The notes: a model not told the origin generated them from the sequence alone. Shown: positions 19,253-58,805, numbered from the stretch's first letter. The stretch: DNA of 64,000 nt from Psammoneis japonica (GCA_008632985.1 QPGO01000146.1:1-64000), one strand, 5' to 3'. Program-made: numbers and translations.

Positions 19253-19553
19253 TTTGACAAGTTTCAGCCATTTTGTTCTCTTTGCACCCAACTTTGTTTC
19301 CAACTGTCAGTGTGGAAACAATGTGTGTAAAGCCACAACCGGTTGCACCAGAAATGGAAGCATCGTTTCATGCTCGGTGTCGCACTGCATCTGTTGGGTG
19401 ACACGTGCAGCTGTTGCTGGTCGTGCTGGCAACAAATGGAAGCGGTGGCACGAACTTGGTGTTGCGCAAACCTGTTGGGTGACAATTGCAGCAGCTGTTG
19501 CTGTGTGAGCCATTGTGCAACATGGTCACTGTGTTAATTAAAGAGGACTGAAT

Positions 19554-29450: not shown

Positions 29451-32026
29451 TCCTACTGTAGAATGTGCCTTCCCGGCAAAGTTGTCGGGGTCGGCATTCA
29501 TATCAAACTTTTGAAGCGCTTGAACGAGTTGACCGATTGTTTCGTTTGATTTCGTGGGCAACACGTGCTGAAGGATGTTCCTCCAAGTTTCGTTGAAGCT
29601 CTCGGAGGATTCCATAATGTCCGATAGACTCACCGTGAGGTGACGATCGGGGTATAGTTCTGCAATGGCGGAAGCCACCATCATTTGCTTGATAATCTCA
29701 AGACTTACTAAATGCATTTCCAGTTGCAGGCCCACTTCGGTCGGCAAATCACGGATCGCTTCTTGGATGATCATGTCTTTGCAGTTGTGCTTACCGCATA
29801 GTTCTTGCTTGAATTTCGGATGCTTGCCGACTTTTTCGTGCATCCAACCTTCCTTGCCCAGCTTTGTATACCGGTACGAGCTAAGGATCAAATCGATCGG
29901 ATTCCGAACGAAATGAACAACCAGATAGGTCTTCTCACACGACGCGTATTTGAGCTGCTTCTTGAGTGTCTTGATCTGACTCGTCATGCACTGCTGCAAT
30001 CCGTCCTTGCTTCCGCCTCCATTAGGCCAACTATCCCACCATTTTCCTAGGCAGTCAGACCAGGCGGCATCAATCATCCATTTTGGCCATTGGTTGTAGC
30101 TACGAATCTCCGGCTTCTCGTCCGTTCCGGAACAAGTCATTGCCTTGCCCTTTCCGTCACGGAACAAATTGTTCTCGTTCAGAAATTCCTCCGAGTAGGT
30201 AACCAATCCTTGTTTCTGGAGGAGCGAAGCGACTGACCTTGAAATATCCGTTCCAGTCTTGTGATGCGTCGCAAAGTATACAGTCTCCGGCGGTCCCTTC
30301 TTGGATTTACCCGCCTTAGTTTTCTGCTTTTGTTCCGCATTGGTATTTTCGTGGCTCTCTGAAGCTTTTTTGCGGGCTTCGAGGCGCTCTAGTGATTGGG
30401 TACGGCAGTGTTTGAACCGGAACTCTGGGAACGGTCTCTGTTCCGCATCGGGTCCGGGTGGTTCTCCAGCATCTTGTACAACTCTTGGTTGTAAGGATCA
30501 AAGGCTTCGGCAAGTTTAGCGTGTGAAATACACGAGGGTGTATAGTTGGTTCGATGCTTGGCTCTTTCGTTGAGTTTGACAATCGATTGAGGAGCAACGT
30601 CCTCGCCAACCGGCAAGTCGAGGAAGCGTTGAAGTCGATCCATTAGCGAATTAGGATCCTTAGACAATTCCTCGTATGAGAGAATCAATATTTGCTTTCG
30701 ATCGAAAAACGCCATCCATTCACTGATCCATTTCGAATACATGCCAAAAGATGAGGAAAGTTCCGGAAGCACCTCGCTCGTAACGTAGTTATCAAAGCTT
30801 AGAAGCTTTCCATTTTCGTCAAGGACCCGTTCGGTGTACGGTCGAGGATTCTCACTGGTGTAGTGCTCCTCTGCCATGTGATGGAAAAACGAAAACTCCC
30901 GATCAACAGGCTCACGCAAAATCATAACAATCTTTACGTCATCCTGCGCACCAGCTTGTTTGTAAATATTGGCAACGCGATCAGCATGCGGGAGATAATC
31001 CGGGGTGGCGTCCAACACGTGGGGGCTGTTTTCCCTACAGTGTTTGAAGTGGTTCTTGTAATGACCGAGTCCTTTGGAATACATTTCGTCCTCCAAATCA
31101 AAGAAATGAACTTCCTTGATGGGCTCGCCATTATCTGTAGATTTAGGTTTGCAGACGTTAGCATGGTGAAAGATCCAGCTGGCCACAGCGGTCGTTCCGG
31201 ATTTCTGAGCTCCAACCAACAAGACATTTGGAACTCCTTTGAAAGGAGCAATCGGTTTTGTTTCGTCTTTTTTGGTTCCATCAGAGATGTTCTTCTTGTA
31301 TGCCTTTTCCTTTTTTGAGTTTTTCACCTCTGGCTGCTTTGGATGCTCTTGTTCGATTGGTTTTTCTTCTACTGCTTTTTCTTCGACTGCCTTCTCTTCG
31401 ACTGGCTTGTTTACAGGTTCGTTCGGCATCGCTTGTGAGTTAGGCTTATTCTCTACAGGCTCAGCGACTGGTGTGTCAGGTTTCTCTACACGTTCAGACG
31501 GTTCTACTTGATCAGCAGGTTTCTTTTCGTCGCTGACAAGACCTTCTCCCTTTTTCGCAGTTTCGGGAGGCGTACGGTCTGCGTCTTTCGCGGCTTCCTC
31601 CGTTTTCCTGTTCGCGTGTTCTGGCACGTGTTTGATGTGCGGTGCAATGGCATGCTCTATATTATCAGCCATTAGAGTTTTCCGTAGATGATGTGTATAG
31701 TCAACGCTTGTATGGCCGTGAGACGACGCGGCCATGAGACTCATGGAGCGAATGACCAACATTGAAAAGCCATACAACCCAAAGCCCAACCAAAGCATGC
31801 GCATGCATCGCGATACACAAATCGACAGTGAGCTTCTTTTTCGCTTGGATGAAGATGTAATTGATCGATGCTTTAGGTCTGTTGAGACCTTGAGCTGAGT
31901 AGGAACGGCGCAGCAGTCGCTGGCATTTTCTTTTTGTTCTTTTGAGGGATGTGTACGATGCCTCATAATTTTGGGTTCGACTTCAGCTTCCTGCTTCTTT
32001 TCACTCCGTCTGCCGTCTCTTCTCAT
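29349..32026 (-). CDS. Type II membrane protein with two sulfotransferase domains, copy 1 (one apparent 1-bp frameshift at ~30457)
   Basis: TM segment; domain 1 GAQKSGTT, KEVHFFD, DATPDY, REPVDREFS; domain 2 THHKTGT, VVHFVRNPIDLILSSYRY; adding one base near 30457 joins the ORFs and matches the paralogue (GPDAEQRPFP). Confidence 0.85.
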
Positions 32027-37227: not shown

Positions 37228-37752
37228 TTAATGAGACTTTGGTTTATCGACTAGACTCGGCCGCCGCATCCATCCAAAGAGAAGACTTGGGATTCCCTTG
37301 ATCATTGTGATGCAAACGCAGTAGAGAAATGAGCCCAAGTCGCTGTAAAGTGTCACGAGTCCCATTTCCCCACCCTTGAGTCCACTGTCGTAGTGGATGT
37401 TGTGCGTAACGCGGTCCTCTAGCTTTAGCAGTTTGGCAGACGGAAAGGTCCAAAACGACAAGATTCGTGTTCCTCGTTCACCAATGTGATCATTGCACTT
37501 GGAGCATTTGCCTCGCTTGGATCCTACCAAGCCCGTCATGGCTGTGGTACTGTCATACTCGACGGGACCCGCAATGGCAACCTGCCAAGCCCAAAACATG
37601 CATGACGAATTGTAACTTGTTTTGCAATAGCCGCGGCAGTGGGAACAGTGGCAATTGAAGAGAAAGAACGGATCTCGGCTGGTTTCGATAGAAACTGAGC
37701 CACAAGCACAAAAGTCGTGATGAACACTTCTTTTTTGAGATTTTTTCGTCAT
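37228..37752 (-). CDS. GFA/CENP-V (Mss4-like) zinc-binding protein
   Basis: CACG...CHCSHCR...CSKC motif pattern in a 174-aa ORF. Confidence 0.8.
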   Translation of the reverse strand: MTKKSQKRSVHHDFCACGSVSIETSRDPFFLFNCHCSHCRGYCKTSYNSSCMFWAWQVAIAGPVEYDSTTAMTGLVGSKRGKCSKCNDHIGERGTRILSFWTFPSAKLLKLEDRVTHNIHYDSGLKGGEMGLVTLYSDLGSFLYCVCITMIKGIPSLLFGWMRRPSLVDKPKSH

Positions 37753-38527
37753 CTGAATGCAGATGGGTCAACAAAGTTCTCTCAAGAGCTTGCGCATTTG
37801 CCGTTTCCGTTTACGCTCAAAGCTCTGCGTGCCGGAGGGAAGATTTATTGGGAAACCTCGGGAAGAACGGAAAATTTTGGCGGGAAATCCGAGACTCGTA
37901 GATGTTGGTACAGATTCTACGCAACGGTTACCAAGAATGCAGTGACGTAAGTACATGGTCGTCTCTTTCCGAGAAATCGTGCAACAGGAATGTCAAAATG
38001 AAAGCCCAGCCAGCTTCAAAGCACTGCATTTGTTGATAGAAATACCTCTTCACCACTGACCCAGCTAGAGTGCATGCTTCCCAACATTCTGCGAAGCTGA
38101 ATAGGATGTGGTTGACATTGGATCATCAGAGACAGCTCACACTTTCCTTGGAAAAACCAGGGGCGACACAGCCAGTCCATTGCAGTGTCCTTTTTCTGAC
38201 CAACTCCAGAACCAGCCACAACCAACAATGTTTTGCATCTCAACTGTCAATGAAGGAGATGGGGTTTCCGGCTTTAAAGTGTCTCTTTGGTCACCAGCAC
38301 CACAACTGTCTTGTCGCTAAATTGAAAATGTGGGCCAAGACTGCGTTGATGCTGAGTCACGATTGGTGTCACGACCCACGACTCATCCGGAACAGAAACG
38401 CGGATGAACATTGCCGCTGTCATCATTTGTGCTCTTCCTTGACCTTGCATTTACAGTTCAATGCACTCCCAAATGAGGTTTCCTTCATTCGACAGCGTGA
38501 AACAGGTGGTCCACGGCATTGCGCAAC

Positions 38528-39579
38528 ATGTCCGAAAACAAGAAGGGGCATCTTCCGCTCAAGGCAGCGACAGCACAGGTTGTCTCTGAAGCAAATGGCG
38601 CTGTCGTCGAGGACGTGGAAGAAGTCGCGGCAGTGGGTGTGGTTCAAATTGTTGCTCCGGCTGATCTGCCTGAAGGCTTTTGCTTTGAAGCTGAGGTGGA
38701 AGGGGCGCCCATCTACATCACTGTGGTGCGCACGGCGCACGAGTTTTGTTTTGTTTCACATGTCGTTGTCGCTTGTACGAGCAGTTGGACTGATGTGACT
38801 TTCACTTTTGTGCATGGCCAAAAGGTGGCATCGAGAAAGGAAAAAGATTTTTGGTGGCGCCTGCTGAAACAACCTTGAGCCATGAGAGAACCAACACCCC
38901 AGTTGGAAGGTGGAAGGATGATCTCTGTGACTGCTGTGTGCATGGCTGTTGCCACGCTCAGATGTGCCTTACAATCTGGTGCCCCTTGTGTGAGTTCTTC
39001 ATGCTGTCATAGAAGCAACTGTCGCCCTGAACAAAAGGAGGGGCTCACAATGGTGCGTTTTCATGCCGCTGCAGGCGCGATTGCACAAGTGATGCAAAGG
39101 CCAAACCTGAGCTGGTGTGGAGATCATGTGCGAGGGTCCGCAGGCACGAATGCCCACAGAGTCATGTTCCATGTTGCAGCTGCATGCATTGTAGCTCATG
39201 TCATGCTGCCTGTCATGATGATGGCCAGTCTCCAGCTGGCATGTCATGACAGTGGATGCCACAGGCATTCCAATTCGCGCGGGACTCAGACGGATTGTCA
39301 AGCCAGCGTCAATGGTCTGGATCAGCTTGGTGTGACACTTCACTCTTGTTCAGGCCTGCACCTCCTTGTGATTGCATCCAGGACACGGCATTGCTTTGCC
39401 AAAAATGCTCCATTCTAGCCTCCGGTTGTTGCGCGGATTGTGAAGATGCATGCTGCATCTTTTGGTGCGGGACGTGTGGCATCTGTCAAATGGCTCGTCA
39501 CACTGCGGACTACGATGTGCACCCCGCTGTGTGCTGCGAGCCAATGGGGATTCATCCCGATGCTCCGATCATTGTCTGA
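38528..39579 (+). pseudogene. PLAC8-family gene copy 1, intron-containing, TpA-hypermutated
   Basis: VAPADLPEGFCFEAEV, GRWKDDLCDCC..GCCH...IWCP, IAQVMQR, CEDACCIFWCGTCGICQMARHTADY. Confidence 0.8.
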
Positions 39580-39685
39580 GTAACAAGTTTTGTTTCAATT
39601 TCATGCCTCCCTTTGTTCTTAAAGTGTCGACCCTCGTGCATGTCATTTTAAGAGCTGCCTGGTCATGCTTCCATTTGTTGATCGC

Positions 39686-39961
39686 TGACAGGATTTGAAC
39701 AGGATTTGGGTGCGCGCGAAATGTCGCATGCTGTTTGGTTTGCCACGCACAGTTTTGTGTGCTTCAGTTCCGCGTGTTCGCGTGCAATGCAGTTTGCTTT
39801 CGAGCCACAAGGCTCACAAGAATGACAACAGCAGCCCGATCATGCCGACTCACACGTCTTTCGGCTCCTGCAATGGTCTCTGAGCGGAGACACATCTGCC
39901 ATTTAGACAGCAGCAAGGAGTCATTGTTTGAATTCTTGCCATTTGCCTTCAATTTCTGTCA
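39686..39961 (+). repeat. 5' LTR (276 bp)
   Basis: TGACAG...CTGTCA; direct repeat of 46483-46757. Confidence 0.95.
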
Positions 39962-40862
39962 GATCAACAGTCCTCGTCGTTGATTTACCGACGACGCTGC
40001 TTCAATTCTGCGTGGACCTCCATGTGCATTCTACATGCATCGGCAAGTCTGCGCACGTTCAATGCCAGGCATCGGCAGGAATTTAACGTCACCGTCAAGT
40101 CTCCTTGCCGCTGGACATCTGGATTGATTGCACCACCTTTGATCGCTGAAGACATGCATCAACGGTCACATCCAAGTCCATCCTTGACCCTCATCCCTTG
40201 ACATGCCCATTCATCGGTTAACGGTCAAGAACCCCACATGTTCAAGGATCTTCATCGCTGAAGACACACATGCACACACATCTTCATGGCCAAGAACTTT
40301 TGCCCACTCTTCGGACTGCAGTTTTGCTGCCACTCTACAAGCACACCGAGTCCATTGTGCCTGATCTACCCCGGACTGCTGGTGCTCCACAGTTCCACCA
40401 GGTCCACGAGGACGACTGTGAGAGCAAGCAGCCGTGGTTGCAGCCTGCGTTGGGGCGAGGGTGTTTTCCCGCGTTTGTTCGTTCGTCCACAGCGCCTGAC
40501 GCCCACGTCAACTGGCCAGCCTGATCGGGAAATCCAACCGACATAAAATGAGAACGGTTCGGGGGTCTTGTCCACCTCTGGTCAGCTCACCTGCAGGGGT
40601 TTACAACCCGCTGCTCCGCTCGCAAGCAACCCAAAGCACCGCTGGCTGTGGGTTCGGACGTGCCGGCACAACTCTGCGGACCGGACAGGAAGTTCAGCAC
40701 TTGACAACGAACGGGATGGCACAGCCCGGCGACTTCTGATTTTAAGGCAGTTCAAGATTTCAAGTCAAGTCCATTTCAAGTCAAGTCTGTTCTCACCCAA
40801 GTTTCAAGTCCACCTTCGCTTCCCAACAAGAATTGCTTGTCCGGACACCACTTTTGTCTGCC

Positions 40863-43800
40863 ATGGTTCTCACTCGTCAGCAACAAACCGATGGTTTCGA
40901 GCACGTTGTTGGAACCGTGCTTGCCCAAGGTGCTGGGAGCCCTCTTCATTTGGCTTTGGCCCAAGACGGCACGGACTCGCATCAAGAACTGTTCACGTTC
41001 ATGCCGCCCCAAATCGACTCGCTTGAGCACGACAACGGCACCAATGTGATCCCTTTGCCCCGCGGTTGTAAGAACATGTTAGCAGCTCTAGTCAGTCTGT
41101 GCATTGTCAAAGCACACGAAGGTCTTGACGTTGCCAATGACTCCTCGTTGTTCGCGCATGACGAGTTCCTTGCCTGCCGCCTCAGCCCCGACTGCATGTC
41201 TTCTGTGTCCGTCGGCAGCTCACCCCTCGCACCTCCGCATGTCACCAACCCGACCAAGGCATGCGACCCGGTACGAGACTTCAAGCGAGGCATCAAGCGT
41301 GACCCCACCGCTTTCACGGCTCTCAAATCCGACAAGCAGTGGCACACTTGGCACACCTCACTTGTGGCACAAGCCCGTGCCCAAGATGTCGAGTGCGTTC
41401 TAGACTCGTCGTACAAACCGACCAGCCCCGAAGACAAACTGCTCTTTGCTGAACAGCAAAAGTGCATGTTCGCCGTCTTCAAACGCGTCCTTCTCACCGA
41501 CAAGGGCAAGGCTCTCATTCACGAAAATGTGGGGTCTTCTGACGCCCAGACCGTCTGCCGCGCCTTGTCTGAGTGTGCGCTCGCCTCCACCCATGCATCT
41601 GTCGAGTCCTCCACCTTGCTCACGCACCTTGCCACCGCACGTCTTGGTGACGGCACTTGGAAAGGTCCAACCCACGGGTTCATCCTTCATTGGCAAGATC
41701 AGTTGCACAAGTGCGAGGCACTCATCCCGGCCAGTGACCACTTCTCTGAAGGACAGAAGCACGTCATGCTCGAGAATGCCGCACACCCTGTCGAGGAACT
41801 CCGTGCTGTCAAGAACCAAGCTGATCAGCATCGCACGCAGAGTGGCAAGAGCCTCACATGCGATCAATGCTGTGGCTTGCTCCTCTCCGCGGCGGCTCAA
41901 TGCGACAGTGCGTTTCAACCCAAGATGACACCTCGAGCTCCCCGACGTGCCATACATGCACACGACGTCTGCTCCGAGGAACCGTCCGACGATGTGTTCT
42001 ATGACATTGACAGCGACATTGACGTCCTTCAGGCCAATGCTGCCCACACCCGTGGTCCCAGCCTCACCGGTGACCAATGGAAACGTCTCCCTCCCGACCA
42101 CCAACGGATTTGGGATTCGTCGCCCCATTCCTCCAAGGCGATCATCCTTGAGCATTCTCGTCCGCCTCCCTGCAACCCGCGAGCCAGCAACTGCCATGAG
42201 TCCATTGCGGCCAACCTTCACGACCAACGCCTTGGGAGTGACGGTGATGTCAACTTGTCCAACACGACTCCTGCTGACTCTGGTGACCCCGCTCCAAATG
42301 TGGGTGCCACTTCGGACAATCCCATCCTGGCACACCTCACCAAGCGCAAGCCACTGCCACCCGGTGATCTGCAACGTCTGTTGTCTCCTAACCAAGCCCC
42401 CCAACGCCAGTCGACCGGGGCCATCCGCCGCTCCCTCTGCCCCGCCAGCTCCTGCCGATGACACAGAACTTAACGGCGGCACTTGCCGCCGCGTTGACAA
42501 CCACAATGTCATTTGCTCTGCCTCTGCTCATCGCTCCACACGCACTGGTGCTCCAGTTGATCATGGGGCCAACGGCGGCATTGCTGGCGACGACGTTCGT
42601 GTCATTGCACGCACCTCTTGCCAAGTCGACGTTCAGGGCATTGACGACCATCAATTGGTGGACATCCCCATTGTCACCGCTGGTGCCGTCATTGAGACCC
42701 AGCGTGGTCCCGTCATCGCCATCCTCCACCAGCATGCATGCACGGGCAAGGGCAAGACCATTCACTCCTGCGGCCAGCTCGAATGGCACAAACAGGATGT
42801 CAACGATCGCTCTGTCAAGGTGCCCAATGGCTTGCAACGCACTGCCACTCCTGATGGCTGTGTCACCCCCATTGACATCAAGGGCAGCCTGCCTTGTGTT
42901 GCCATGCGACCTTGCACTGATGCCAAATGGGACACCCTGCCCCATGTCATCCTCACCGGTGATGACACATGGGATCCTTCCGTCCTCGATCACTCTGTCA
43001 CTGACGACGACCAGTGGCACGACGCGATCTCTGACCTGCAGGACGATCCCACTGCCAACCTGTTTGACGAATGCGGCAACTGCCGTCATCGTGTCGTCGT
43101 CAACGAGACCATCATGTCCGCTTCCTTGTCTGCCGATCACACGTCCGCCCTTGATGATCACCTCATTCCGAACAACGACGTGTTCTGCGAGTGTCATCTG
43201 CATGCGATTGACCCCAAGGATGACGACGTTCCGCCCCCGGAGCGCACTGTGCAGCCCAAGGACCCCCCCTTCGAGTCTCTTCGGCCTTGCTTTGGCTTCC
43301 CACCTGCCGATGCGGTCCGTCGCACTTTTGACTGCACCACGCAGTGCGTCCGCATGCCCGCCGGTGCACACCTTAGGAAGGCCCACAAATCACCCAACCC
43401 CGCCCTTAATGTGCACCGCCGCAACGAGCCCATCGCCACTGACACCATTTGTGCCGACACCCCGGCCGTCGACTCTGGTTGCACCAGCGCCCAACTGTTT
43501 GTTGGCACCGAGTCTACCGTCACTGACGTCTGCGGCACCAAGACGGACAAAGAGTTTGTCAACACACTCGAGGATCAGATCCGTGAGTGTGGTGCCCCAT
43601 CCAAACTCATTAGCGACCGTGCTCAAGTTGAGATCAGCAACAAGGTGCTCGGGATTCTACGAGCCCTCTTCATCTCCAGCTGGCAAAGTGAGCCTCACCA
43701 GCAACACCAAAACTTTGCCGAGCGTCAACACCAGACCGTGAAGAGCATGGCGAACACTGTCATGGATCGTTTTGGTTCGCCTGCCCACACATGGCTGCTG

Positions 43801-46535
43801 GCGCTCATGTGCGTGTGCTTCATGCTCAACCACACAGCGTCCCCACATCTCCACTGGTGCACGCCCCTTGAGACTCTCACTGGCTCCACCCCGGACATCA
43901 GCCCATTGCTTCGCTTTCACTGGTGGGAACCCGTGCACTTCCACCTCGATGACTCCGATTGGCCGTCCGAATCCCATGAGTTGCGTGGACGCTTTGTTGG
44001 CATTGCTGAGCACGTCGGCCACCAGATGACCTTCAAGATTCTCCCTGACGAAACTCAGAAGATCCTCTGCTGGTCCAACGTACGTTCCGCTGCCACCGAT
44101 CCTGCCGTTCGAAACCTGCGTCTTGATCCTCCTGATGGGGAGCCACCTGAACCCATCATCAAATCTCGCCATGACGACAACCCCGTCGATTCTCCTGATG
44201 GGGAGATCAGGACACCCAAGATGCCAGTTTTCGATCCGCAAGACATCATCGGACGCACCTTCCTCATGCAGCCACAAGAGGATGGACAACGCCACAGAGC
44301 TCGCATCGTCAAGGCCGTCGAAGACCACGAATGGAAAGTGAACGGCAATCCCGAGCTCACTAAGTTCATCTGCTCTGTCAACAACGACGAACACACGAGG
44401 AAGTCCTTGCCTGCAATGACATCATGAATCACATTGAGCAAGAAGACGAAGACACTGCTGTTTGGAAATTTCGATGCATCGTGTCACACGAAGGACCTCT
44501 GAAGCCTCATGACCCAACCTGGAAAGGCTCAAGCTACAACGTCATGCTTGAATGGGAAAGTGGGGAGATCACGTCCGAGCCTCTTGCCATCATCGCCAAG
44601 GATGACCCCGTCACCTGCGCCATCTGTGCACGAGAGAATGGACTTCTCGACACTGATGGCTGGAAGCGGTTCCGCACCATCGCGAGGCGCCAGAAGAAGC
44701 TATTTCGCATGGCCAACCAAGCCAAGCTTCGCTCCTTCCACACTGCACCTCGCTGCAAGTGTGGGTGCGAAGTTCCCCGGAACTGCAAACACGCCATGTC
44801 ACTGGACGAACGCAATGGCAACCGCAAATGGGGAGACGCAACTAATCTCGAGATGGACCAACTCGGTGAATGCGAAGTCTTCCATGACTGCGGGCCCTTC
44901 GAGTCTTCCACTCCTCCTGCGGGACACAAGAAGATCCGAGTGCACCTGGTGTGTGACGTGAAACACGATGGTCGCCACAAGGCACAACTCGTAGCCGATG
45001 GGCACCTCACGGACACACCCATCGACAGTGTCCACTCCGGAGCAGTCTCCCTCCGTGGCCTTCGGCTGATGATTTTCCTGGCCGAACTCAACGAGTTGGA
45101 GACATGGGCCACCGACATTGGAAATGCCCACCTTGAAGCCACCACCAAGGAGAAGCTCTACATTGTAGCTGGACCCAAATTTGGCAAACTCGAAGGACAC
45201 ATCCTTGTCATCCACAAGGCCCTGCATGGACTGCACAGCTCCGGTCTCCGCTGGCACGAGCGCTTCGCCGACTGCCTGCGAGCTGAAGGCTTCTTCCCCT
45301 GCCGCGCCGAACCCGACATTTGGATGCGCAGGAACGGCAACCACTGTGAATGCATTGCCGTTTGTGTGGATGACCTCGCCATTGCCATGAAGGACCCTCA
45401 ATCTTTCGTCGATGCTCTCACGGAAAAGTGCAAGTTCAAGCTCAAGGGTGCGGGACCCATTGAGTTCCATCTGGGTTGCGACTTTTCCCGGGATCCCGAC
45501 GGCACCTTGTGCCTGTCTCCGTGCAAGTGCATCGAGCGCATGGTCAACAGCTGCACCCGACTGTTTGGGGAGAAACCCATCACCAATGCCCTGTCACCTC
45601 TGGAGAAGGGTGACCACCCCAAACTGGACACTTCCGAACTGCTGGAGCCCGATGGCATTCACAAGTTCCAGTCTCTTGTTGGTTTGCTCCAATGGGCAGC
45701 GTCCCTTGGTCGAATTGACATTGCCACGGCCGTCATGTCACTCTCTAGCTTCCGAGCTGCGCCCCGTCAAGGCCACTTGGATCGTGCCAAACGCGTCTGT
45801 GGGTGCCTCTCCAAGATGCAACACGGCGCTCTCCGCGTTCGCACGGAAGAGCCCGACTGTTCGGATCTCCCTGCTCCGGCCTGTGAATGGATGCATTCCG
45901 TGTACGGCGAAGCAGAAGAGATGATCCCGAAGGACGCTCCACCGCCCCTTGGCAAGTTCGTCACCACCACCCACTGTGTCGATGCAAACTTGCACCATTG
46001 CATGCTCACCAGACGCTCTGTCATGGGGATGCTCCACTTCCTCAACAAATTCCCGGCTGATTGGTTCTCTAAGAAGCAAGCCACCGAGGAGACTGCAACC
46101 TGCGGGTCTGAATTTGTTGCTGCAAGGACTTGTGTCGAGCAGATTGTCGACCTGCGCATCACCCTGCGCCACCTTGGCATCCCGATCCGTAACGTCAGTT
46201 ACATGTTCGGTGACAACAAGTCGGTTGTAGACAGTGCCACCATCCCGCACTCCAAGTTACACAAGCAACACACCGCACTGTCGTTCCACCGTGTGCGTGA
46301 GGCAATTGCCTCTGGCTGCCTTGAGTTCCACTTCATCGAAGGCTCCCGCAACCCTGCTGACATTCTCAGCAAGCATTGGGGTTGCTCCCAAATCTGGGAC
46401 CTTCTCCATCCCCTCATGTTCTGGAACTTCATTCCATCCGAAGTCGAATCTGTTTCTGTGGCTCCTCAAGCAAACTGGGGAGTGACAGGATTTGAACAGG
46501 ATTTGGGTGCGCGCGAAATGTCGCACGCTGTTTAG
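40863..46535 (+). pseudogene. Copia gag-pol, hypermutated, frameshifts at ~42400 and ~44395
   Basis: gag DFKRGIKRD; protease VDHGANGG; integrase IATDT..LISDRAQVE..QNFAER; RT DIGNAHL, KALHGL, CVDDL; RNase H CVDANL, FGDNKSVV, NPADILSK. Confidence 0.95.
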
Positions 46536-46757
46536 TTCACCACGCACAGTTTTGTGTGCTTTAGTTCCACACGTTCGCGCACAATGTAGTTTGCTTTCGA
46601 GCCACAAGGCTCACAAGAATGACAACAGCAGCCCGATTGTGCCGACTTGCACGTCTTTCGGCTCCTGTGACGGTCTCTGAGCGGAGACTCATCTGCTGTT
46701 TAGACAGCAGCAAGGAGTCATTGTTGAGTTCTTGCCATTTGCCTTCAATTTCTGTCA
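46483..46757 (+). repeat. 3' LTR (275 bp)
   Basis: Direct repeat of the 5' LTR, preceded by the PPT and followed by the TSD. Confidence 0.95.
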
Positions 46758-46972
46758 ATCGCCATTGTCATTCAGCACATTCTCAATTTTTCTAAATGAA
46801 ACGATGCATTGTGACCACATGTGGCACCAACGTCAACCTGTTTTTGAGTTGAGCACTGCTTGTGCGTGGGAATGTTCTTTGGCAGTTTTTCGCATGTTGG
46901 CCAAAAAGGTCTCTTTCTTTGCCATTGAAACTCGGAAAAATGCAAAGCAAAATGGCAAGAAGTGCCACAGCA

Positions 46973-47172
46973 AATGAAGAAAGCTGCAATTTGATGATGC
47001 AACGGCTCTGCACCACAGTTTTAAAACAGTCAAGGGAATTTAAGGTGCAAGAATTGATGTGCCGCAGCAAATGAAGAAGGTGGCACATGAAGAAAGCTGC
47101 AATTTGATGATGCAATGGCTCTGCACCACAGTTTTAAAATGGTCAAGGGAATTTAAGGTGCAAGAATTGATG
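46973..47172. repeat. ~87-bp direct repeat pair
   Basis: 46973-47059 resembles 47086-47172; differences are CG/TG and CA/TG. Confidence 0.85.
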
Positions 47173-48626
47173 GTGGGAGAGTCACACGGAGAGCAGTGGG
47201 GTGGGAGCATGCCACAGAGTGAGGGTGCGACAGTGCTGACAGATGGGTTGGAGGAAAAAGAAGGAAGAGAATGACAGCAAAAAAAGTCTTGACATGAGGT
47301 GAGGTGAGCAGTGAGGGCAAGGCCAAAGTCAAGACTGAGGAGATGGGCAGCCCAAGATTGGGGAGTGGATGAGTGATGGGAGAAGCCAAGGTGTAGAAGG
47401 AGAGTTGTTTCCAGGCAATGTTGGTGTGGGTGAAGATGTTGATGGGAGAAAGCAAGGAGGTTTGGAAAGCTGGGAAGGGATCTTCTGAACTGAAGAACTC
47501 ATCAGGAACAATCCAGTGTGGCTTGGGAGGAGGGGCGAAATGGAGTCAAAGGAGGATGTGAGCAAGCTGAAGAAGAAGGTGTGGAAGTGGTGGCCAAGGC
47601 CACCCAGATGATCAGTGGCAAAAAAAAATGGGAGCAGACAGGCTTGGTTGATCAAGTTGATGACAGAAGCACCAGTGGCAGAGGAGCAGTGGTGTCCTGA
47701 GGTTCAGCAAGAAGGCCTTGAGCAGCAGGCAAGTCAGGTGCAGGGTGGGAAGCAGCTGGAGGAGCAGCAACATCAATGAGAAGAAAGTGTCATGCAGAGG
47801 AGGCACCGGGAGGAGCAGAGCTGGGGAAGAGCTGGGTGCCAGTGCCAGCAGGGCATTTGGGAGGATGCACAGAGAGCAGGCCATCTGGCTTCTTGAGAAA
47901 GACATGACAGCAGGAGCAGCAAGAGCCGGCTGGGGATCCAGCACAGGATGTTGATGATGGAGCAGATGGTGTCTCAGCCATTGGTCAAAAAATGCAGTGA
48001 ACAGTGCCAGTGCACAGTGCAGCAGGGCCCTGACCAGCTGCCAGAGGTTGTCTTGTGCTTGCTCCATTGATGAAATCTTTCTTTAGAAATCAAACCCAGC
48101 CAGCTTTGAAGCACTGTGCATTTGTTGATGCTGAGGACACCTTTGCACCACTGACCTGGCCAGAGTGCATGCTTCCTCACATTCTGCAAAGTTTGCTTCA
48201 CAGTGAGATCCAGTCTACATCAAATCATCAGAGAGACCACTCACCATTTTCTTGGAAAAACTCAAAAACACAGCCAGTCCATTGTGGTTTCTCTTTTTTT
48301 TGCCAACTCCAGAGCTGATCAATGTCAACAACATTGAGTGTTTCAGCCATCAATGGAGAAGAGGGGGGCTCCAGCTTTGGTGTGTGTCTTTGTTTGCCAC
48401 AACACAGCTGTTGTGTTGTGCTGGTGCTAAAAGCAAGCAGGCCAAGGCTGAGACCATTTGTGCTGAGTTGACAGCCACAACTGTGCATGTGATCAAGTCA
48501 AGACTTGCAGCTCATCTGCGCCACCAAACATGAGGATCATTGGACTTTGCCTTCACAGCTTCATTGACTCCAAACAAGGCTTGCTTCATTTGACAGCATG
48601 AAAAAGGCACAGCGCAGCATGGTGCA

Positions 48627-49570
48627 ATGCCCAAAACAAGAAGGGGCATCTTCTTCCACTTGAGGTGGTGACAGCACAGGTTGTCTCTGAAAGAAATGAT
48701 GCTGCTGTCAAAGCTGCAGAGAAGAAGTTGTGGTGACAGGTGTTGGCCTAAATTGCTGCTCCAGCTGATCCACCTGAAAGTGCTCACTTTGAAGCTGAGG
48801 TGGCAGCACACACCTGTCTGCTGTCTGCACTGCTGTGACACACACAGCACATGAGCTTTGTTCTGTGGCACATTTTGTTTGCTTGTGCAAACAGCTGAAC
48901 TGATGCAACTTCCTTTTTTTGCAAAGCCATGAGGTGGTGTTGAGAAAGAAAAAAGGCTTTTGGTGGTGCCCGCTGAAGAAACCTTGAGCCTTGAGAGACC
49001 TGCCCCAATGCCCCAGTTGGAAGGTGGAAGGATGATCTCTGTGACTGCCACACATCTGGCAGTTGCCATGCTCAGATGTGCCTTGCAATCTGGCTCCTAA
49101 CATGCAAATTCTTTGTGCTGTTGCACAGAAGCAGCTGTCACCCTGAACAAAAGAAGCACCTCACACTGGACAAGTGATGTGCAAAGGTTGAACCTGAGCT
49201 GGTGTGGAAATCATGCTCAAGGATCCACATGCCCCAATGTGCACAGAATCACATTCAGCATTGCAGCTGCATGTGTTGTTGCTTGTGTTGCACTTTCTCT
49301 TGTCCACCAGGTCAGCTCAATGTGCCACTTTGCTCTTGTGCAGGCCTGCACCTCCTTGTGATTGCATCTGGGATTGTCACTGCATCTGCCAAAAATGTGC
49401 CATTCCAGCCTCAGGTTGTTGTTTGGGTTGTGAAGATGTGTGCAGCATCTTTTGGCACATGACATTTGGCATCAGTGAAAATGGCCTGTCACATTGCAGA
49501 ATGCAGCATGTGCTGTGCCATGTGCTGTGAGCCAATGGGGATCCATCCTGATGCTCCCTTCACTGTCTGA
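48627..49570 (+). pseudogene. PLAC8-family gene copy 2, more degraded
   Basis: Collinear with 38528-39579, including ~500 bp upstream (38020-38520 resembles 48110-48620); has lost both TpA and CpG. Confidence 0.8.
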
Positions 49571-51366
49571 GAAGCCAGCTTGACTCAATTTGCAGGCCCC
49601 CTTCCCCGGGCTTTGAGTTTTTTGACCCTGGTGAAATTCACCTCAAAAGCCACCTGGCTGCCCATTCATTTTGTCAACTGCAATTGCACTCAGTGCACCT
49701 TCAATTTGCCCACATGCACCAATGAGTTGCAACAACATCCAGTGAAGTTGAGTGCCAAGTGGGCAAATTCTCTTGCAGTTTTTGTGTGTTGGCCCAGAGG
49801 TGCCTTTCTTCCCTGTTGAAATTTGACCAAATGCAAAGCAGAATGGAGTGTAATGCTGCAGCAGATGCAAACAAAAAAAGCTGAAATTTGATGATGTGAT
49901 GGCATTCCACACATTTGCAGCTCATGGACAGAAGACACTTGCTCTGCAGCACAATGACATGTGCTGTGTTTTTTTGTTTTGCAGGGATCTTTCAACCAAG
50001 CCACTCAAAAACAAATGAGGGAAATTGCTGTTGATGCGAATGGCATCTTTGTCAATCCCATTGATGAGACAGGTCACAGACTCTGCCTCTGGGAGTTCAT
50101 GATGGACCAAGGTCCTCACAGGTTCTTTCCCCACAGTTTGTCTCATTTTCACAGCTGGCATCCTTCTCACAACCTGCCATGCCTTGTGTGCATCCTGTGA
50201 CAATTGCCTCCAGAGAGAAATGGGTTTCTGTCATTTGAGCAGTCAAGATGATGGACAAGGTTGAGTGTGCTGCCCAGCAGAGATGGCAGCAGTGCACATT
50301 GTCCCTGCAATGGCACCACAAAGGCCAGCCACAGAAAGGAGGGCAAGGGCATGGCTCAAGCCATCATGCCAGCCAGCCTTCCTGAGGGCTTTCTTTTGTT
50401 GAAATGAAAGTTGAGAAAAAGGCCATGTCTGCCACAGCAGTGGGCACTGTGACCACATTGCTTGACCAATGATGCTGTGGCCAGCAGCACTTCATTCATC
50501 TCACCACCCTCTCTCATCATGAAGAAATCCCACTGAACCATCTTCAATGTTTTTTCACAAGTGCAGCCAACGGGCAGTGTTGAGGAATGAAAAAAATTGT
50601 GGCATCACCTGAAAAGACTGGCAGCACCCAGGAGATGCTGTGCACTTGCCAGACAATGGAAGGATTCATGATCTGTGAGAGCTGCTTTGACTGCCCTCAG
50701 AAAGATCAGCAGCACCTTGTGCTTTGACACACCTGCTGTGCAAGTCATGGTTGCTGTCATCACCAACTTTGTCTCCAACTCATGAGTGCTTTGTCTTGCT
50801 GTTTTTTGTGCAATGCTCTGCACAAGTGATGCAAAGAATGAATCAGGTTTGGGGCACACAAGTCCTTCACAGTGGTTTGTGGGAGCTCCAATGCTTGTGA
50901 AACAATGCTCATGCTTGCAACCATCTTTGTCTTCATTGACAATGTGCTCCTCCAGCTCTGGGTGGGAAAAGCAAAGGAAGGCTCAAGCAAAAGACTTTGA
51001 TGGAGCTGAAAGTGTGTCAAGGTGAGGTTTTTGTCAGAAAAGACAAAGTGCAGCCCAACGGAGCTGGTGGCAGCACATGGCGGCTCTTCATCAGACAGCA
51101 ATGCCATGGAGGCCATCCACAGAAGGGAGGACAACAAGGGCATGATTGAGCTTGCTGCACCAGCTGACCATCCTCCAAGGGCTTTTCTTTTGATGCAGAA
51201 GTTGAGAAGCAGGCTGTCTCTGTCACTGTGGTGGGTGCTGGTGATGTTGCATGAAACAGCAACAATGTGGCTGGTGATGTGCAGTGTTTTGTCTTGTTGT
51301 CCTCTTGTTGCCAAGAGATCCTGCCAAACAGTCTTCAATGTTTTTTACATGTGCAGCCAAAGCAAG

Positions 51367-52139
51367 GGTGGCGCTGAGAAAGGAAAAAGATTCATGGTGT
51401 CTCCTGAAGAGATCACCAGCAGCCATGGGCATTGAAGGATGACATCTGCAAAAGCTGCTCTGATTGCTCTTGCAACAGTTGGTGGTGCCTCACGCTTTGG
51501 CACCCAGCTTTCAAGTTGCGGTTGTTTGTCACACCACCAAATCTGTCTCTGATTGACAAACAGTTGATCTCATCACATTTTGTGCAACACAAGGCATGAT
51601 TGCACAAATGATGCAACAAAATGAATCTAAATTGGTTCATGGATCTTTCACCACAGTCCAAAACAACATTCATGCTTGCAACCCTCTGTGTCTTCATTGA
51701 CAGTGTGCTGTCTCTTGCATGTTGGGGGCTTGTGGTTGGGGGGCTTGGGTCTGAGACACTGCAGGACTGTCAAGCTGCCATTTCCACCACAACAACAGCC
51801 AGTTCAATTCATTCTCTGCATTTTTGCTGGCGTGCCTGCACCTGCTGACCATTGCTGTCAAGACCCATCATTGCCTTCTTCAATTCATTCTCTGCATTTT
51901 TGCTGGCGCGCCTGCACCTGCTGGCCATTGCTGTCAAGACCCATCATTGCCTTCATCAGAAGCATGCCATTCAGGTGGAACACTGCAATGAGTGTTGTGA
52001 AGAAGTTTGCTGCTCCTTTTGATGCCTGAGGTGCGGCATTTGCCAAACGGCTTGTCACACAGCCGACTGCGCCCCTCGCTCTGCCAAGTGCTGGGAGCCA
52101 ACAACGGGGAGCGACCCCAGTGCTCCTGTCATTGTCTGA
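51367..52139 (+). pseudogene. PLAC8-family gene copy 3, 5'-truncated
   Basis: GGAEKGKRFMVSPEE start and ...GCTCCTGTCATTGTCTGA end match copies 1 and 2; internal ~68-bp tandem duplication at ~51803-51955. Confidence 0.65.
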
Positions 52140-52663
52140 GAAGCAAGTTGTTTCAAATTGGACCCTTCATCAGACAGACCATCCAAGAAAATTGGTTTCC
52201 TGTCTGATGCTGTGATGGTGTTCAATCTTTTCTAATTGGCTCTTGGCTCAAGCATGCCACGACACAGCAAACCTGGCTCGGATCTTCTGGTGAAATCAAG
52301 CAGAGTGGAGCTGCGCGTGGTGCTGTGGCATGCCCACTGGCATGAAATGATGCAAGAGAAGAAAGCCAAGGTAGTGTGCTATGTTAGCTGACAAAGAGAA
52401 ATCAGATGTCAGATTACTCTCGACACTCCATCCCTCTCCACCGGCATTGTAAGAACAAAGCCATGCGATGGAAGTTGCTCGCACAGTACACCCGCCTATC
52501 ATGCACCCTACCATTTTGATTTTGATCCTGCACACTGACTCATTCATGCCAGAAGCAATGTTGCAACTTGCGACGCGACCATGATGTGGCATCATAAAAC
52601 AGACGACACATCTACTGTAGCTCCGTCATCTATCTACTAAGCGCAAAACGAACAAGTTCCACC

Positions 52664-53707
52664 ATGAAGGACGTTTGCCTCTCTTTGAGTCTGATGGTCG
52701 TGGTCGTCATGGCGTCCATTTTCTCAAGTGCTTCCGCGTTCTCGTCGCTAGGAAAAAAGTCGACGGCTCGCGACGTATTGTACGAATTAAACAGTGGAAA
52801 CAGGCTGGCATCCTTTGTGCAGAAGGATGACGCAACGGCAGTTGTTACCGGAGGAAATAGTGGAATTGGATCTGAAACCGTAAAGACGTTGGCCTTGACG
52901 GGCATGAAGGTCGTACTTTGTGCTCGCAATGAGGAATCGGCACAAAAGACGCTTGAAAAGATCCCCGATTGGTGTCGAGATAACGTTTCCGTGCAAAAGT
53001 TGGACCTGGCAGATATGGATTCCATTCAACGCGCGGCTCAAGAAATTCAAGAGACACACACGTCGATTGACCTCTTGTGCAACAACGCGGGTGTCATGGC
53101 TCTGCCCCAACGCCAAGAAACCAAGAACGGCATTGAAATGCAGGTGGGAGTGAATCATGTCGGACACCACATGCTTACACGGTTGTTACTCCCCCATTTG
53201 AATGAAAACGGACGTATTGTCAATGTAGCGAGTTCGGCGCATCAAATGAGCAAGGGCGATCGCGATTGGAATTCAGAGCAATCCTATTCGGCATGGGGCA
53301 CATATGGAACAAGTAAACTTGCAAATGTATTGTTTGCCAAGAGCTTGCAAGAAAAGCTCAACGAAGCTGGACGAAGCGACATTAGCTCGGTGTCGTTACA
53401 CCCAGGAGTTATCAAAACCAATCTTTGGAGAAACACTCCTTCGCTGCTACAGTTTGCGACCAATCTTTTTGCCGACAAGTCTATTGAGCAAGGCGCTGCT
53501 ACGAATGTGTACTGCTCGCTTGTAGATAAGCTAGAAGGAGGCGAGTATTACCAGGATTGTCAAGTGACAAGTACGTATCCGACAGCTCAAGGAAAAAGCA
53601 TTCGTCAAGACTTGTGGACCTACACCGAGAATCTAATCAAAGAGAAAGGATATGATTTGCCCACAAGTTTGTTAAGGGAGACGGAAACAGCAGTTGAATT
53701 AGTGTAA
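52664..53707 (+). CDS. Plastid-targeted short-chain dehydrogenase/reductase (retinol dehydrogenase-like)
   Basis: Signal peptide plus ASAF motif; TGGNSGIG, NNAGVM and YGTSK catalytic motifs. Confidence 0.92.
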   Translation: MKDVCLSLSLMVVVVMASIFSSASAFSSLGKKSTARDVLYELNSGNRLASFVQKDDATAVVTGGNSGIGSETVKTLALTGMKVVLCARNEESAQKTLEKIPDWCRDNVSVQKLDLADMDSIQRAAQEIQETHTSIDLLCNNAGVMALPQRQETKNGIEMQVGVNHVGHHMLTRLLLPHLNENGRIVNVASSAHQMSKGDRDWNSEQSYSAWGTYGTSKLANVLFAKSLQEKLNEAGRSDISSVSLHPGVIKTNLWRNTPSLLQFATNLFADKSIEQGAATNVYCSLVDKLEGGEYYQDCQVTSTYPTAQGKSIRQDLWTYTENLIKEKGYDLPTSLLRETETAVELV

Positions 53708-53976: not shown

Positions 53977-56133
53977 CTACCCGTGGCAAGTACGATTGGC
54001 TACACAACGCGGTCCCTCCAAAGCTTCATGTTCTGGAAGTACAAAGAAATCGACCGCATCACACATCTTCCAAACACCATGAAGGAACAACGATTCCAGA
54101 AACTTGATGTAGTCGCTACTTTCTTCCGCTCTTCTTTGGAAAGCGTCCATGGACTCCAACGTGCCCATTGAGAAAACGGAGTCTTCTTCACTTGTGGTCG
54201 AGGAAGACTCTTGCTCGGGTGGTTCTTTGCGTTTCTTGCGCCACCGTAGCTTGCTTGAAAACTGTCTGACTCGGAGTTTCTTCACCCATTTTCTTTTCTT
54301 TCTAGAGCTTTTGCTGTGCTCTCCTAGATATATGTGTGTTACCTTTGAGGACTCGGACGGTTCGGGCATTCTGAACTCATTGTTCCTCGTGCTGTCTTCC
54401 CTGAAGCATTCACTGCGGCCACGGATGGACGTTGGCATCCCCCCACCAACATTCGTTACACAGGACACGATATCATCCGGCTCTTCCTGCAGTAAATACG
54501 GACTTTGGAAGCATTCTGGTGCCGTCCATGTAGATGCGCTGCAGCCCCGAACGTAGTAATATGGGATCCCCGTCAGAGGATCTAACTCGTACTTCCAAGT
54601 TGGGGCTGAAGCTTCTTTGTCAGCCCCAGCGACCGCACCTGTTACCGCTGGTCCAGCAATCTCTTCGGGTAGGTTTTCGGACGACTCCAATGACTTGAGC
54701 TGTTTGGCATCATGGCGCCGTGATTCTTTGCCCAAGATGGATGTACTCTCCCGTCCGATGGACGTCGACCTCTCCTCTGGTGTAATCGTCACGCAGCCCA
54801 TATCTTCTGATATCGACACTTCGAAAACATCGTACGCTGTAGCTTGTGTTGAGGATATATCTGCCTGTATACTCGACTTGAGCTCCTTGCTCTCTTGGAT
54901 CTTCATGTCTTTCCCTTCGAAGGATATGCTATCTGATCGGATGGACTCCTGTCCGGTGGATATCGACGTATCTTCCGTTGTAGTCGACACACAGTCCACT
55001 CCTTCTGTTATTGCCAAAATCTCGAAACTTTCGTGCTCCGTGGTGTGCGAACAGGATTTATCTGACGTTACGCTCATCACGGAGAATGAGTGCTTTGGGG
55101 TTTTTGATTCGAAGCCGGGCTTTGTCCAAGTAGATGTGCGACCGGGCTTTGTCCAAGTAGATGTGCGACCGTCGTGACCGAGGTAGTAATATGGAAGACC
55201 CGTGAGAGGATCCACCGCGGTTTTCCACGCCTTGTCGACCCCATCCGGCGATGTGTTCGAAGGCTTGCTCGTTGTGGAGCCCACACCTTCAGGTACCTTC
55301 AACTCAGCATCTTCGTGGTCTGCCTTTTGAGAGGAGGACTGCAGGCTCAGCACACTGACCGAGCGCATGGGTTCAAAGCCTTCATGCATTGTCCATGTCG
55401 ATATGCGACCGTCTCGACCACAGTAGAAATACGGCCTTCCTGTGCGAGGATCTACCGCAGACTTCCACCTTGAAGTCCGCGATTCGCGTTTCGAGGGTTT
55501 CTCGGAGGGCTCGCACAATGTTGAGCCCACGTCTTCAGGTATCTTCGATTCAACATCTTCATGCTCTGCCATTTGCGAGGACGACTGCATAGTCAGCACA
55601 CTGACCGATCGAATGGGCTCAAAGCCTTCTTGCATCGTCCATGTTGACGTACGACCGTCACGGCCGAAGCAGTAGTACGGCCTTCCCGTGCGAGGATCCA
55701 CCGAAGACTCCCACTTTGAGGTTCGAGGCTCGGGACGAGCTTTCTCACGGGTGTCTCTTCTTGCGCCATCAACGTCCTCAGAAACTTTCTCGAAAGACTC
55801 GAAGCATTTGATCTCTCCATTCGACTGCTTGTGCTTGCCACGAATCTCTTCAACAGGTGCAGCGCCATATATAACGCGAGTTGAGTATTGACTGTTCACG
55901 CCGGAATACCGGTCTGCTGGACTCGGCCTATGAGAAGTACGATTTCGGCTACGAAACCGGAGAACGCCGCGACGTGTCCTCGACTCTTCTGGTGGTGGCT
56001 CCTCTAGAAAATCAGCAAAACTGAGACCGATTAACACCAACTCGACGTTCTGATGGGACGCTGATAAGCTGCTAGTTAGAGCTGGTTGAAACGAACAAAT
56101 TGGTCGAGGACTAATGGCTTCGGCCGAAGTCAT
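53977..56133 (-). CDS. WW-domain repeat protein
   Basis: 718-aa ORF with four W...DP.TG.PYY......STWT repeats. Confidence 0.8.
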   Translation of the reverse strand: MTSAEAISPRPICSFQPALTSSLSASHQNVELVLIGLSFADFLEEPPPEESRTRRGVLRFRSRNRTSHRPSPADRYSGVNSQYSTRVIYGAAPVEEIRGKHKQSNGEIKCFESFEKVSEDVDGARRDTREKARPEPRTSKWESSVDPRTGRPYYCFGRDGRTSTWTMQEGFEPIRSVSVLTMQSSSQMAEHEDVESKIPEDVGSTLCEPSEKPSKRESRTSRWKSAVDPRTGRPYFYCGRDGRISTWTMHEGFEPMRSVSVLSLQSSSQKADHEDAELKVPEGVGSTTSKPSNTSPDGVDKAWKTAVDPLTGLPYYYLGHDGRTSTWTKPGRTSTWTKPGFESKTPKHSFSVMSVTSDKSCSHTTEHESFEILAITEGVDCVSTTTEDTSISTGQESIRSDSISFEGKDMKIQESKELKSSIQADISSTQATAYDVFEVSISEDMGCVTITPEERSTSIGRESTSILGKESRRHDAKQLKSLESSENLPEEIAGPAVTGAVAGADKEASAPTWKYELDPLTGIPYYYVRGCSASTWTAPECFQSPYLLQEEPDDIVSCVTNVGGGMPTSIRGRSECFREDSTRNNEFRMPEPSESSKVTHIYLGEHSKSSRKKRKWVKKLRVRQFSSKLRWRKKRKEPPEQESSSTTSEEDSVFSMGTLESMDAFQRRAEESSDYIKFLESLFLHGVWKMCDAVDFFVLPEHEALEGPRCVANRTCHG

Positions 56134-58545: not shown

Positions 58546-58805
58546 TTCTATTTATGACGAGGTCCTTTCGACGTCACAAATCGATTGAGGAACAACATTC
58601 TGCATATCCATCGTTTTATACATATTCAATGATCGAAACGTCGTGCGTTTGTTGCGTACGTGCCAAACCCGCGCCACGTCTGCTCACAAAGTTCAGTCAC
58701 ATCATGCGATTTTGCGAACACATTGTTGGCATTATGGTTTCCCCATCACAACCAACACAACGAAAGAAAGAGTCGCAACGCTGTAAACACCACTGGAAAA
58801 TATCA

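Follow-up and report, generated by a model that had tools for sequence, protein, structure and literature searches.

TpA-specific A:T>G:C hypermutation as the probable source of TA loss in a Copia retrotransposon and its chromosomal surroundings in the diatom Psammoneis japonica

Results

We analysed a stretch of 64,000 nucleotides from the diatom Psammoneis japonica (GCA_008632985.1 QPGO01000146.1:1-64000), called the window throughout, and found that it holds a Copia element (39686-46757) from which the dinucleotide TA is nearly absent, within a longer tract of chromosomal DNA that shows the same loss. The element is a Ty1/copia-type long terminal repeat (LTR) retrotransposon, with an LTR pair, a 5-bp target-site duplication and an integrase that precedes reverse transcriptase (RT; RVT_2) and RNase H. 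Its 5' LTR (39686-39961, ends TGACAG...CTGTCA) and 3' LTR (46483-46757) are 91.7% identical, and the duplicated target ATCGC is present at 39681-39685 and 46758-46762. The gag-like, protease-integrase (PR-INT) and RT regions occupy three overlapping frames, all on the plus strand like the LTRs and the duplication. The gag-like open frame (40746-42458) has 2 Tyr in 571 codons and an observed/expected ratio (O/E) for TA of 0.12, the PR-INT open frame (41929-44424) has 1 Tyr in 832 codons, and the RT-RNase H open frame (44364-46532) matched RVT_2 with an E value of 1.7e-21 and has 4 Tyr in 723 codons, with CVDD in the place of YVDD. The gag-like and PR-INT frames matched no Pfam family at E<=0.001; the PR-INT frame aligns to the integrase part of P0002, a relative of 1,032 amino acids that spans integrase, RT and RNase H, and 1,030 positions of this protein could be aligned to the element.

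The original prediction, made by a model from the sequence, had described the element as structurally intact. This was right for the LTRs, the duplication and the integrase, RT and RNase H, and not for the reading frames, which are three and differ from those of other copies: the copies found in contigs of a public DNA run (X1) have 1 bp fewer at 42397, in the PR-INT frame, and 2 bp fewer at 44393, in the RT frame. The element is thus complete but dead. The Copia family is very abundant and diverse. Its summed contig depth in X1 was 66,000-143,000 compared to about 55 on the flanks (39606-46817), which is not a copy number, and the 12,344 X1 contigs on the Copia element had 315 transitions and 38 transversions at variant places.

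The amino acid composition of the RT/RNase H frame was strongly shifted, with 0.6% Tyr, 4.6% Cys and 5.5% His, compared to means of 4.3%, 1.2% and 3.7% in 119 relatives. The count of four Tyr in this frame agreed with the original prediction; its length of 703 amino acids did not, as the frame has 723 codons from stop to stop. All six altered motifs that had been named were present in the element (CKCGCEVPRNC, DIGNAHL, KALHGL, CVDD, TATCGSEF and LRHLG), and the consensus of 27 relatives, which reads YKYGFEVPRDY, DIGNAYLEA, KALYGL, YVDD, TATYGSEF and LRYLG, has Tyr at each of the positions quoted for it.

The whole element contains 44 TA in 7,072 bp (O/E 0.13), in line with the claim that it is nearly free of TpA, together with a near-normal CG O/E of 0.85, TG and CA O/E values of 1.54 and 1.40 and a GC content of 0.563. 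The interval 42473-43373, said to be without TA, indeed has none in 901 bp, and the actual TA-free run extends from 42471 to 43374. In the RT region the TA O/E of 0.12 was lower than in 79 of 80 metagenome relatives; only one relative (L052), itself erased, was below it at 0.01. As 77 of these 80 relatives have a TA O/E of 0.45-1.10, with a median of about 0.7, chance is excluded as the source of the low TA in the RT region.

The loss is wider than the element, to which the original prediction had assigned it. The TA-erased tract covers 38100-52230 on both sides of the insertion, without an assigned strand, and has 72 TA in 14,131 bp (O/E 0.09; TG 1.67, CA 1.57). On the element flanks the TA O/E was 0.15 at 38,100-39,685 and 0.03-0.14 at 46,758-52,230. 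TA thins out at about 38,100 and returns at about 52,230-52,370, each edge being 150-200 bp wide, and TA-normal genes adjoin the tract at a distance of a few hundred bases (GFA, 37231-37767; SDR, 52598-53704). The claim that adjacent host genes are normal did stand: the ten open reading frames (ORFs) with Pfam support in the whole window all fall in blocks without TA erasure and have a TA O/E of 0.28-0.64 and 1.1-5.4% Tyr, nine being at or above 0.40 (0.40-0.64) and one ankyrin-repeat ORF at 0.28.

Direction and specificity of the change were determined against TA-normal relatives. At 24 columns where Tyr is conserved in 79 relatives the element has 3 Tyr, 15 Cys, 4 His, 1 Trp and 1 Phe, and at 427 other conserved columns it retains the conserved residue in 381. 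Native Cys or His in the family does not account for this, since at the 24 Tyr columns Cys is absent and His occurs at most once in 77 of the 79 aligned relatives. The comparison with P0002 alone gave the same picture, with its 42 Tyr positions being 4 Tyr, 23 Cys, 9 His and 6 other residues in the element. When the DNA of six relatives was aligned to the element by codon threading, TA in the relative corresponded to TG or CA in the element at 48, 48, 35, 58, 63 and 59 sites, while the reverse was seen at 1, 1, 4, 3, 4 and 3 sites. Summed over the six alignments the ratio of TG to CA was 149:162.

Ancestral dinucleotide states were then assigned from 12 TA-normal relatives, with agreement of at least 75% of them as the threshold. 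At the 27 ancestral TA sites so defined the element has 2 TA, 16 TG, 6 CA and 2 TT. TA was thereby retained at 7%, whereas all 15 other dinucleotide classes were retained at 65-95%, the lowest ones being neighbours of TA; among the ancestral sites, 42 of 49 AA and 19 of 20 TT were unchanged. The spectrum by context, with the relatives taken as the ancestor, is therefore dominated by TA>TG/CA, as had been expected. A second set of 20 relatives gave 38 conserved TA sites, at which the element has 4 TA, 19 TG and 8 CA, whereas each of ten left-out TA-normal relatives retained 28-32 of 38-39 conserved TA and had only 1-4 TG and CA together. A single-base spectrum that required three conserved neighbours covered only 13 TA-context sites. 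The element also differs from the genes in base composition, which affects any comparison of TGN/CAN gains with TAN losses at the trinucleotide level. The one-way excess of TA in the relatives over TG/CA in the element argues for a directional, TpA-specific A:T>G:C change on both strands rather than for native composition, in agreement with the original prediction.

The LTR pair, which would have been identical at integration, was used to follow changes after the insertion. Of the 22 differences between the two LTRs 21 are transitions, and aligned pyrimidine-purine steps account for 20. Three are TA in one LTR and TG or CA in the other, six are CA/TG doubles and five are CG in one and TG or CA in the other. 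As controls, five tandem repeats in TA-normal blocks with 144 mismatches had 56% transitions and no CA/TG doubles. With 13 CG/CG pairs and five pairs of CG with another dinucleotide, the CpG loss is about 0.16 per LTR, at which 0.24 CpG-derived doubles are expected. The TA loss per LTR is 0.6 when taken from TA/TA and TA/other pairs and about 0.89 when the doubles are counted as TA-derived; the latter is close to the total loss of 87-93% at Tyr and conserved-TA sites. The LTR data fit an erasure that would have followed insertion, 5-13 times as fast as CpG decay and faster than other changes by two orders of magnitude.

Since the erased state crosses the borders of the element and the LTRs differ at TA/TG/CA sites, the process would have acted on the DNA in place. 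The predicted DNA-level action on both strands is supported by the one-way changes, the erased flanks and the LTR differences.

The rate of TA loss depended on the neighbouring bases. The survival of TA in erased compared to normal DNA was 0.46 for TTAA, 0.24 for CTAA/TTAG, 0.13 for GTAA/TTAC and 0.10 for CTAC/GTAG, and was lowest for ATAC/GTAT (0.007) and ATAT (0 of 100). Purine-TA-pyrimidine is lost fastest and TTAA slowest. Strand-coordinated patches were looked for and rejected, with runs test z values of -0.9 to +2.8 for all TG/CA steps of seven erased segments and of -1.55 to +2.16 at polarised sites. Likewise, a role of the 5' or 3' neighbour in the choice between TG and CA was rejected, as 21 Cys and 19 His followed a pyrimidine and 16 Cys and 10 His a purine.

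The same signature was found in 3 of the 80 metagenome relatives, namely L052, L040 and L070, which differ in how far the erasure has gone, with TA O/E values of 0.01, 0.32 and 0.31 and with Tyr changed to Cys/His at 8/15, 10/7 and 4/6 positions, respectively. A protein from another assembly (P0055) has 6 Cys and 4 His at the 24 Tyr columns. The erased metagenome contigs come from other accession series than the window. At shared erased Tyr codons L052 and L070 agreed in TG or CA at 7 of 8, and L052 and L040 at 0 of 9. The occurrence of the signature in 3 of 80 metagenome relatives makes a sequencing artefact unlikely.

We also compared the window with the X1 contigs. Over the erased, CpG-free flank at 47143-51250 the contigs had a depth of about 61 and 14 differences in 4.1 kb, compared to 4 differences in 2.9 kb and 10 in 2.75 kb for gene regions; the differences between the window assembly and the X1 contigs are mostly single-base indels. 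The erased flanks are present at single-copy depth in X1 (about 55-61), though they derive from old tandem gene copies. The list of differences used here holds 40 of 374 (34 in the element and 6 in the left flank), filtered at 90% likeness. In the single-copy left flank two of the six listed differences turn residual TA into CA or TG (38318 and 39582), which hints that erasure is ongoing there.

The flanks contain relics of a PLAC8-family gene in three tandem copies, all on the plus strand. Copy A (37996-39613) has a TA O/E of 0.15 and has largely retained CpG (0.63), copy B (48087-49603) has lost both TA and CpG, and copy C (about 51000-52143) is partial and has frameshifts, with the same C-terminal stop. 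The last exon of copy A matches PLAC8 proteins: an exhaustive search gave 412 relatives at E<=0.001, the best at 6e-14, and PLAC8 was found in all ten matches that were scanned. The N-terminal exon of copy A had no match in a word-based search. The last exon is still recognisable (CQMARHTADY...APIIV, followed by the stop), with Tyr>Cys and Arg>Cys at nearly invariant columns. The Copia insertion lies about 100 bp beyond the stop of copy A, and this copy may be a host gene that was silenced and erased along with the element inserted downstream of it.

Comparison of copies A and B gave 45 adjacent CA<->TG doubles, whereas 500 simulations of the null gave 7.5 on average and 17 at most. CG in copy A corresponded to TG or CA in copy B at 42 sites, and the reverse was seen at 2. 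Copy B lies in a sub-tract (47201-52030, no strand assigned) that is also without CpG; the CG O/E is 0.08 over 47201-52230 and CpG is back at about 52,034. TA and CpG losses are separable in space, as the Copia element (CpG 0.85) and copy A (0.63) are TA-poor yet bear CpG, and the CpG loss is a second, separable process. CG>TG/CA changes with CpG depletion, as in methylation-driven decay, were found at the sequence level in the older tract part, and the CpG loss there is as would be expected for putatively cytosine-methylated silent chromatin.

In the 64-kb window TA-erased tracts account for 27,895 of 64,000 bp (44%) and hold 98 TA, while the remaining 36,105 bp hold 1,276. Besides the tract described above, counted here as about 38.3-52.2 kb, these are 1114-3848, 9559-10251, 11365-19375, 22948-26281 and 56726-58355. 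CpG is likewise lost (O/E 0.09-0.24) over most of the erased tracts at 12-18 kb and 23-25.6 kb. The ORFs of the other erased tracts in the window had no Pfam match at E<=0.001. Within one of these tracts a 290-bp tandem duplication (13380-13957) is 97% identical and has no TA; it arose or was homogenised after erasure. From normal to erased DNA the frequency per kb fell from 8.0 to 1.9 for TAA and from 8.7 to 1.6 for TAG and rose from 18.6 to 23.1 for TGA, and owing to the scarcity of TAA and TAG many long open frames survive on both strands of erased DNA. The predicted inactivation by Tyr>Cys/His missense change and not by stops is borne out by CVDD and by this removal of TAA and TAG.

Tandem repeats of 76-342 bp in TA-normal gene blocks were not erased; they are shorter than repeat-induced point mutation (RIP) requires. 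The repeats at 4682-5383, 28877-29457, 55146-55725 and 62184-62555 have no CA/TG doubles. In the control repeats 23 of the 144 mismatches were TA in one copy and TG or CA in the other, with a rough chance expectation of about 4-5% of mismatches, and a similar, weak bias may act throughout the genome. The ankyrin-repeat ORF (59856-60977, minus strand) has a TA O/E of 0.28, 1.1% Tyr and normal CpG (1.08), and its inverted paralogue (58485-59690) has a TA O/E of 0.56 and 2.5% Tyr; this may be a partial erasure of one gene copy, or mere composition. The best named relatives of the SDR gene (52598-53704) are from diatoms (Fragilaria, Seminavis and others), with 50-52% identity, and other matches reach up to 75%.

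Discussion

We consider it likely that the TA loss is due to a TpA-specific, DNA-level A:T>G:C process which is confined to silent tracts and has acted on the inserted Copia element and the tract of about 14 kb around it. In this scenario a Ty1/copia-type element would have entered the chromosome some 100 bp downstream from a copy of the PLAC8-family gene, with duplication of 5 bp of the target. Its DNA and that of the surrounding tract (about 14 kb) would then have been mutated as part of the chromosome, with A:T of 5'-TA-3' changed to G:C on either strand, presumably site by site and without long strand-coordinated runs, and with a halt within about 150-200 bp of active genes. As a consequence about nine in ten Tyr codons would have turned into Cys or His codons, including that of the catalytic YVDD of RT, while TAA and TAG would vanish, frames would stay open and TA-containing signals would be lost. 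Older parts of the tract would additionally have shed CpG. The chemistry is probably enzymatic, and adenine deamination at TpA is foremost among the candidates; the pattern would be no different with a mutagenic modification of thymine.

The original prediction knew of no description of such a process; there is one by now, as the same signature is present in the chlorarachniophyte Bigelowiella natans. In mutation-accumulation lines of this alga Mettrop et al. found that 230 of 231 mutations in integrated giant-virus and virophage regions were A>G or T>C, all of them at TpA, with a rate close to 6e-7 per site and generation that is some 1000-fold above background and was seen in some lines only (bioRxiv 10.64898/2026.01.13.699255). 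According to the same preprint, TpA-poor coding sequences of B. natans are enriched for reverse-transcriptase and DDE domains, and an ADAT2-like deaminase was proposed as the candidate enzyme. The diatom tract carries the same signature. In both cases the changes are almost only A:T>G:C transitions (here TA became 16 TG and 6 CA at 27 sites, and 21 of 22 LTR differences are transitions), they are limited to TpA with both TG and CA as products, and they lie in discrete silent or foreign-derived regions with normal neighbours.

The two cases also differ. The B. natans process was measured in real time and is unsaturated (Rho TpA 0.45), whereas ours is read from sequence and is near saturation (0.03-0.15). 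The host here is a diatom, a stramenopile, and what is hit is an LTR retrotransposon along with decayed copies of host genes instead of integrated giant-virus and virophage DNA. Furthermore, CpG loss accompanies TA erasure in the older parts here, unlike in B. natans as reported, and the fastest loss at R-TA-Y and slowest at TTAA has no counterpart in the Results and Discussion of the preprint. Literature searches gave no description of TpA erasure in a diatom, and the "hypermutation" of the SPLASH preprint was rejected as a match, as it concerns antibodies. What is new here is a diatom instance of a phenomenon known from one 2026 preprint.

RIP in Neurospora and other fungi changes C:G to T:A, mainly CpA to TpA, and thereby lowers GC and creates stop codons. 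It is set off by duplicated sequence and depends on methyltransferases of the RID/DIM-2 type and on a premeiotic stage. The diatom process resembles it as a dinucleotide-specific transition hypermutation of chromosomal transposons and duplicated genes that leaves skewed tracts beside normal genes. It is opposite in its direction, as had been predicted: TpA is destroyed (O/E 0.09), CpA and TpG are raised to 1.57 and 1.67, GC goes up and TAA and TAG are removed. The decay of CpG in methylated transposons is also similar to what is seen here, with a CG O/E of 0.08 in the older part and about 16% CpG loss per LTR, but it does not explain the TA loss, as the Copia element and copy A retain CpG but not TA. 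In Phaeodactylum transposons carry 5-methylcytosine via DNMT5a, and diatoms have a RID-related DNMT4, reported there as being of unknown function (PMC9998398); such methylation fits the CpG loss only.

Some observations weigh against the proposed process, or at least against parts of it. Of the 34 listed differences within the element only one restores TA in the reads; the others comprise 12 that restore CpG, 4 with CpG loss on the read side, 3 with TA in the window and TG or CA in the read, 8 rows that make up 4 doubles and 6 of other kinds. At the LTR double 39783/4 the majority of the read family has CG, which means that CpG decay contributes to the LTR doubles. The source copy may already have been erased, in which case some of the erasure seen here would be inherited. 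The element agrees in TG or CA with the independently erased L052 at 9 of 17 sites, with L040 at 5 of 10 and with L070 at 4 of 7, and against this agreement of about half, widely shared states among the copies of the genome would indicate descent. The ratio of TG to CA is 19:8 in the element and 8:15 in L052, so that no consistent strand rule points to a mechanism. Targeting by silent or methylated chromatin rather than by repeat homology is suggested by the tract geometry alone. Finally, X1 represents one sample from one study, is maybe the assembly's own sample, and its platform is not on record.

The strongest of the alternatives, which we nevertheless regard as unlikely, is a by-product of an intrinsic replication or repair error bias in silent methylated chromatin, such as error-prone gap filling, with no dedicated enzyme or defence. 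The old part of the tract is poor in both TA and CpG, as for two slow chromatin-linked decays, the mild excess of TA against TG/CA (23 of 144) in repeats of TA-normal blocks hints at a low-level genome-wide bias, and strand-coordinated runs, which processive single-strand deaminases would make, were not found. However, the TA loss of 0.6-0.89 per LTR far exceeds both the CpG loss of 0.16 and the other changes (2 of 22), the latter by two orders of magnitude, and the tract edges are sharp (150-200 bp). The error signature of polymerase eta is the WA motif, and AA (42 of 49) and TT (19 of 20) were left unconverted here, unlike that motif. In B. natans, moreover, the process was reported as active only in some lines (bioRxiv 10.64898/2026.01.13.699255).

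APOBEC enzymes change C to U on cDNA and ADAR enzymes A to I on double-stranded RNA, in both cases before integration, and such editing likewise leaves clusters of transitions that depend on context and inactivate the genes of retroelements through missense changes. Enzymes of the ADAR and ADAT types prefer U or T on the 5' side, and a 5' U preference is known for A-to-I editors of RNA (bioRxiv 10.64898/2026.01.13.699255). A retrotransposon has an RNA stage, and an edited template that was inherited would fit the read differences, most of which leave TA unrestored. Yet hyper-editing of the element as RNA or cDNA, followed by integration, is highly improbable: flanking chromosomal DNA is equally erased, including PLAC8 relics without an RNA-copy stage, both LTRs were affected independently and now differ at TA/TG/CA sites although identical at integration, and erasure is also seen in four other tracts of the window in which no retroelement genes could be recognised. 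A miscalled modified base at TA (and CG), with TA retained in the true DNA, would give random TG and CA when miscalled on opposite strands, and the uncertain platform and sample of X1 leave some room for it. We find such an artefact hardly credible, as the independent X1 assembly reproduces the erased single-copy flanks with 14 differences in 4.1 kb, the signature is present in metagenome contigs of other accession series and in a protein of another assembly, and the B. natans result was based on Illumina data (bioRxiv 10.64898/2026.01.13.699255). The original prediction had named TA in reads at these sites as evidence of an artefact; the X1 contigs speak against this for the flanks, with the reservation on the platform given above. 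A native composition, in which active family members encode Cys or His and avoid TA, could call on the open reading frames only and has next to no probability, given that 77 of 79 relatives are without Cys at the Tyr columns, 77 of 80 have a TA O/E of at least 0.45, the non-coding LTRs and flanks are erased too and the catalytic YVDD has become CVDD.

Going beyond the TpA-specific process as such, we tentatively propose, as a possibility somewhat short of an even chance, that diatoms and chlorarachniophytes share a dedicated, chromatin-guided TpA base editor, either an adenine deaminase or a thymine modifier that is recruited to silenced DNA. Such an editor might be an ancient defence arm of the stramenopiles, alveolates and Rhizaria (SAR), which would erase TA at about ten times the speed of methylated CpG decay, kill elements by Tyr>Cys/His changes, strip them of TA signals and spread into host genes such as PLAC8 copy A, and which would be common enough to mark 3 of 80 environmental relatives.

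Conclusions

Only one earlier description of a TpA-specific A:T>G:C hypermutation that strikes silent or foreign DNA is known, from a 2026 preprint on a rhizarian alga. For the search of the enzyme the present data set several constraints: action at TpA only and on both strands, no long strand runs, a preference for R-TA-Y with resistance of TTAA, tracts with sharp edges and a rate that clearly exceeds CpG decay. Base-editing work would also take an interest in a natural DNA editor that turns A into G in a defined context. In genomes with this process gene finding is confounded, because frames remain open after the loss of TAA and TAG, and so is the dating of transposons by LTR divergence. The process shapes a large share of the genome, amounting to 44% of the window studied here, and its occurrence in a diatom and in metagenomes would mean that it is either old or convergent within SAR.

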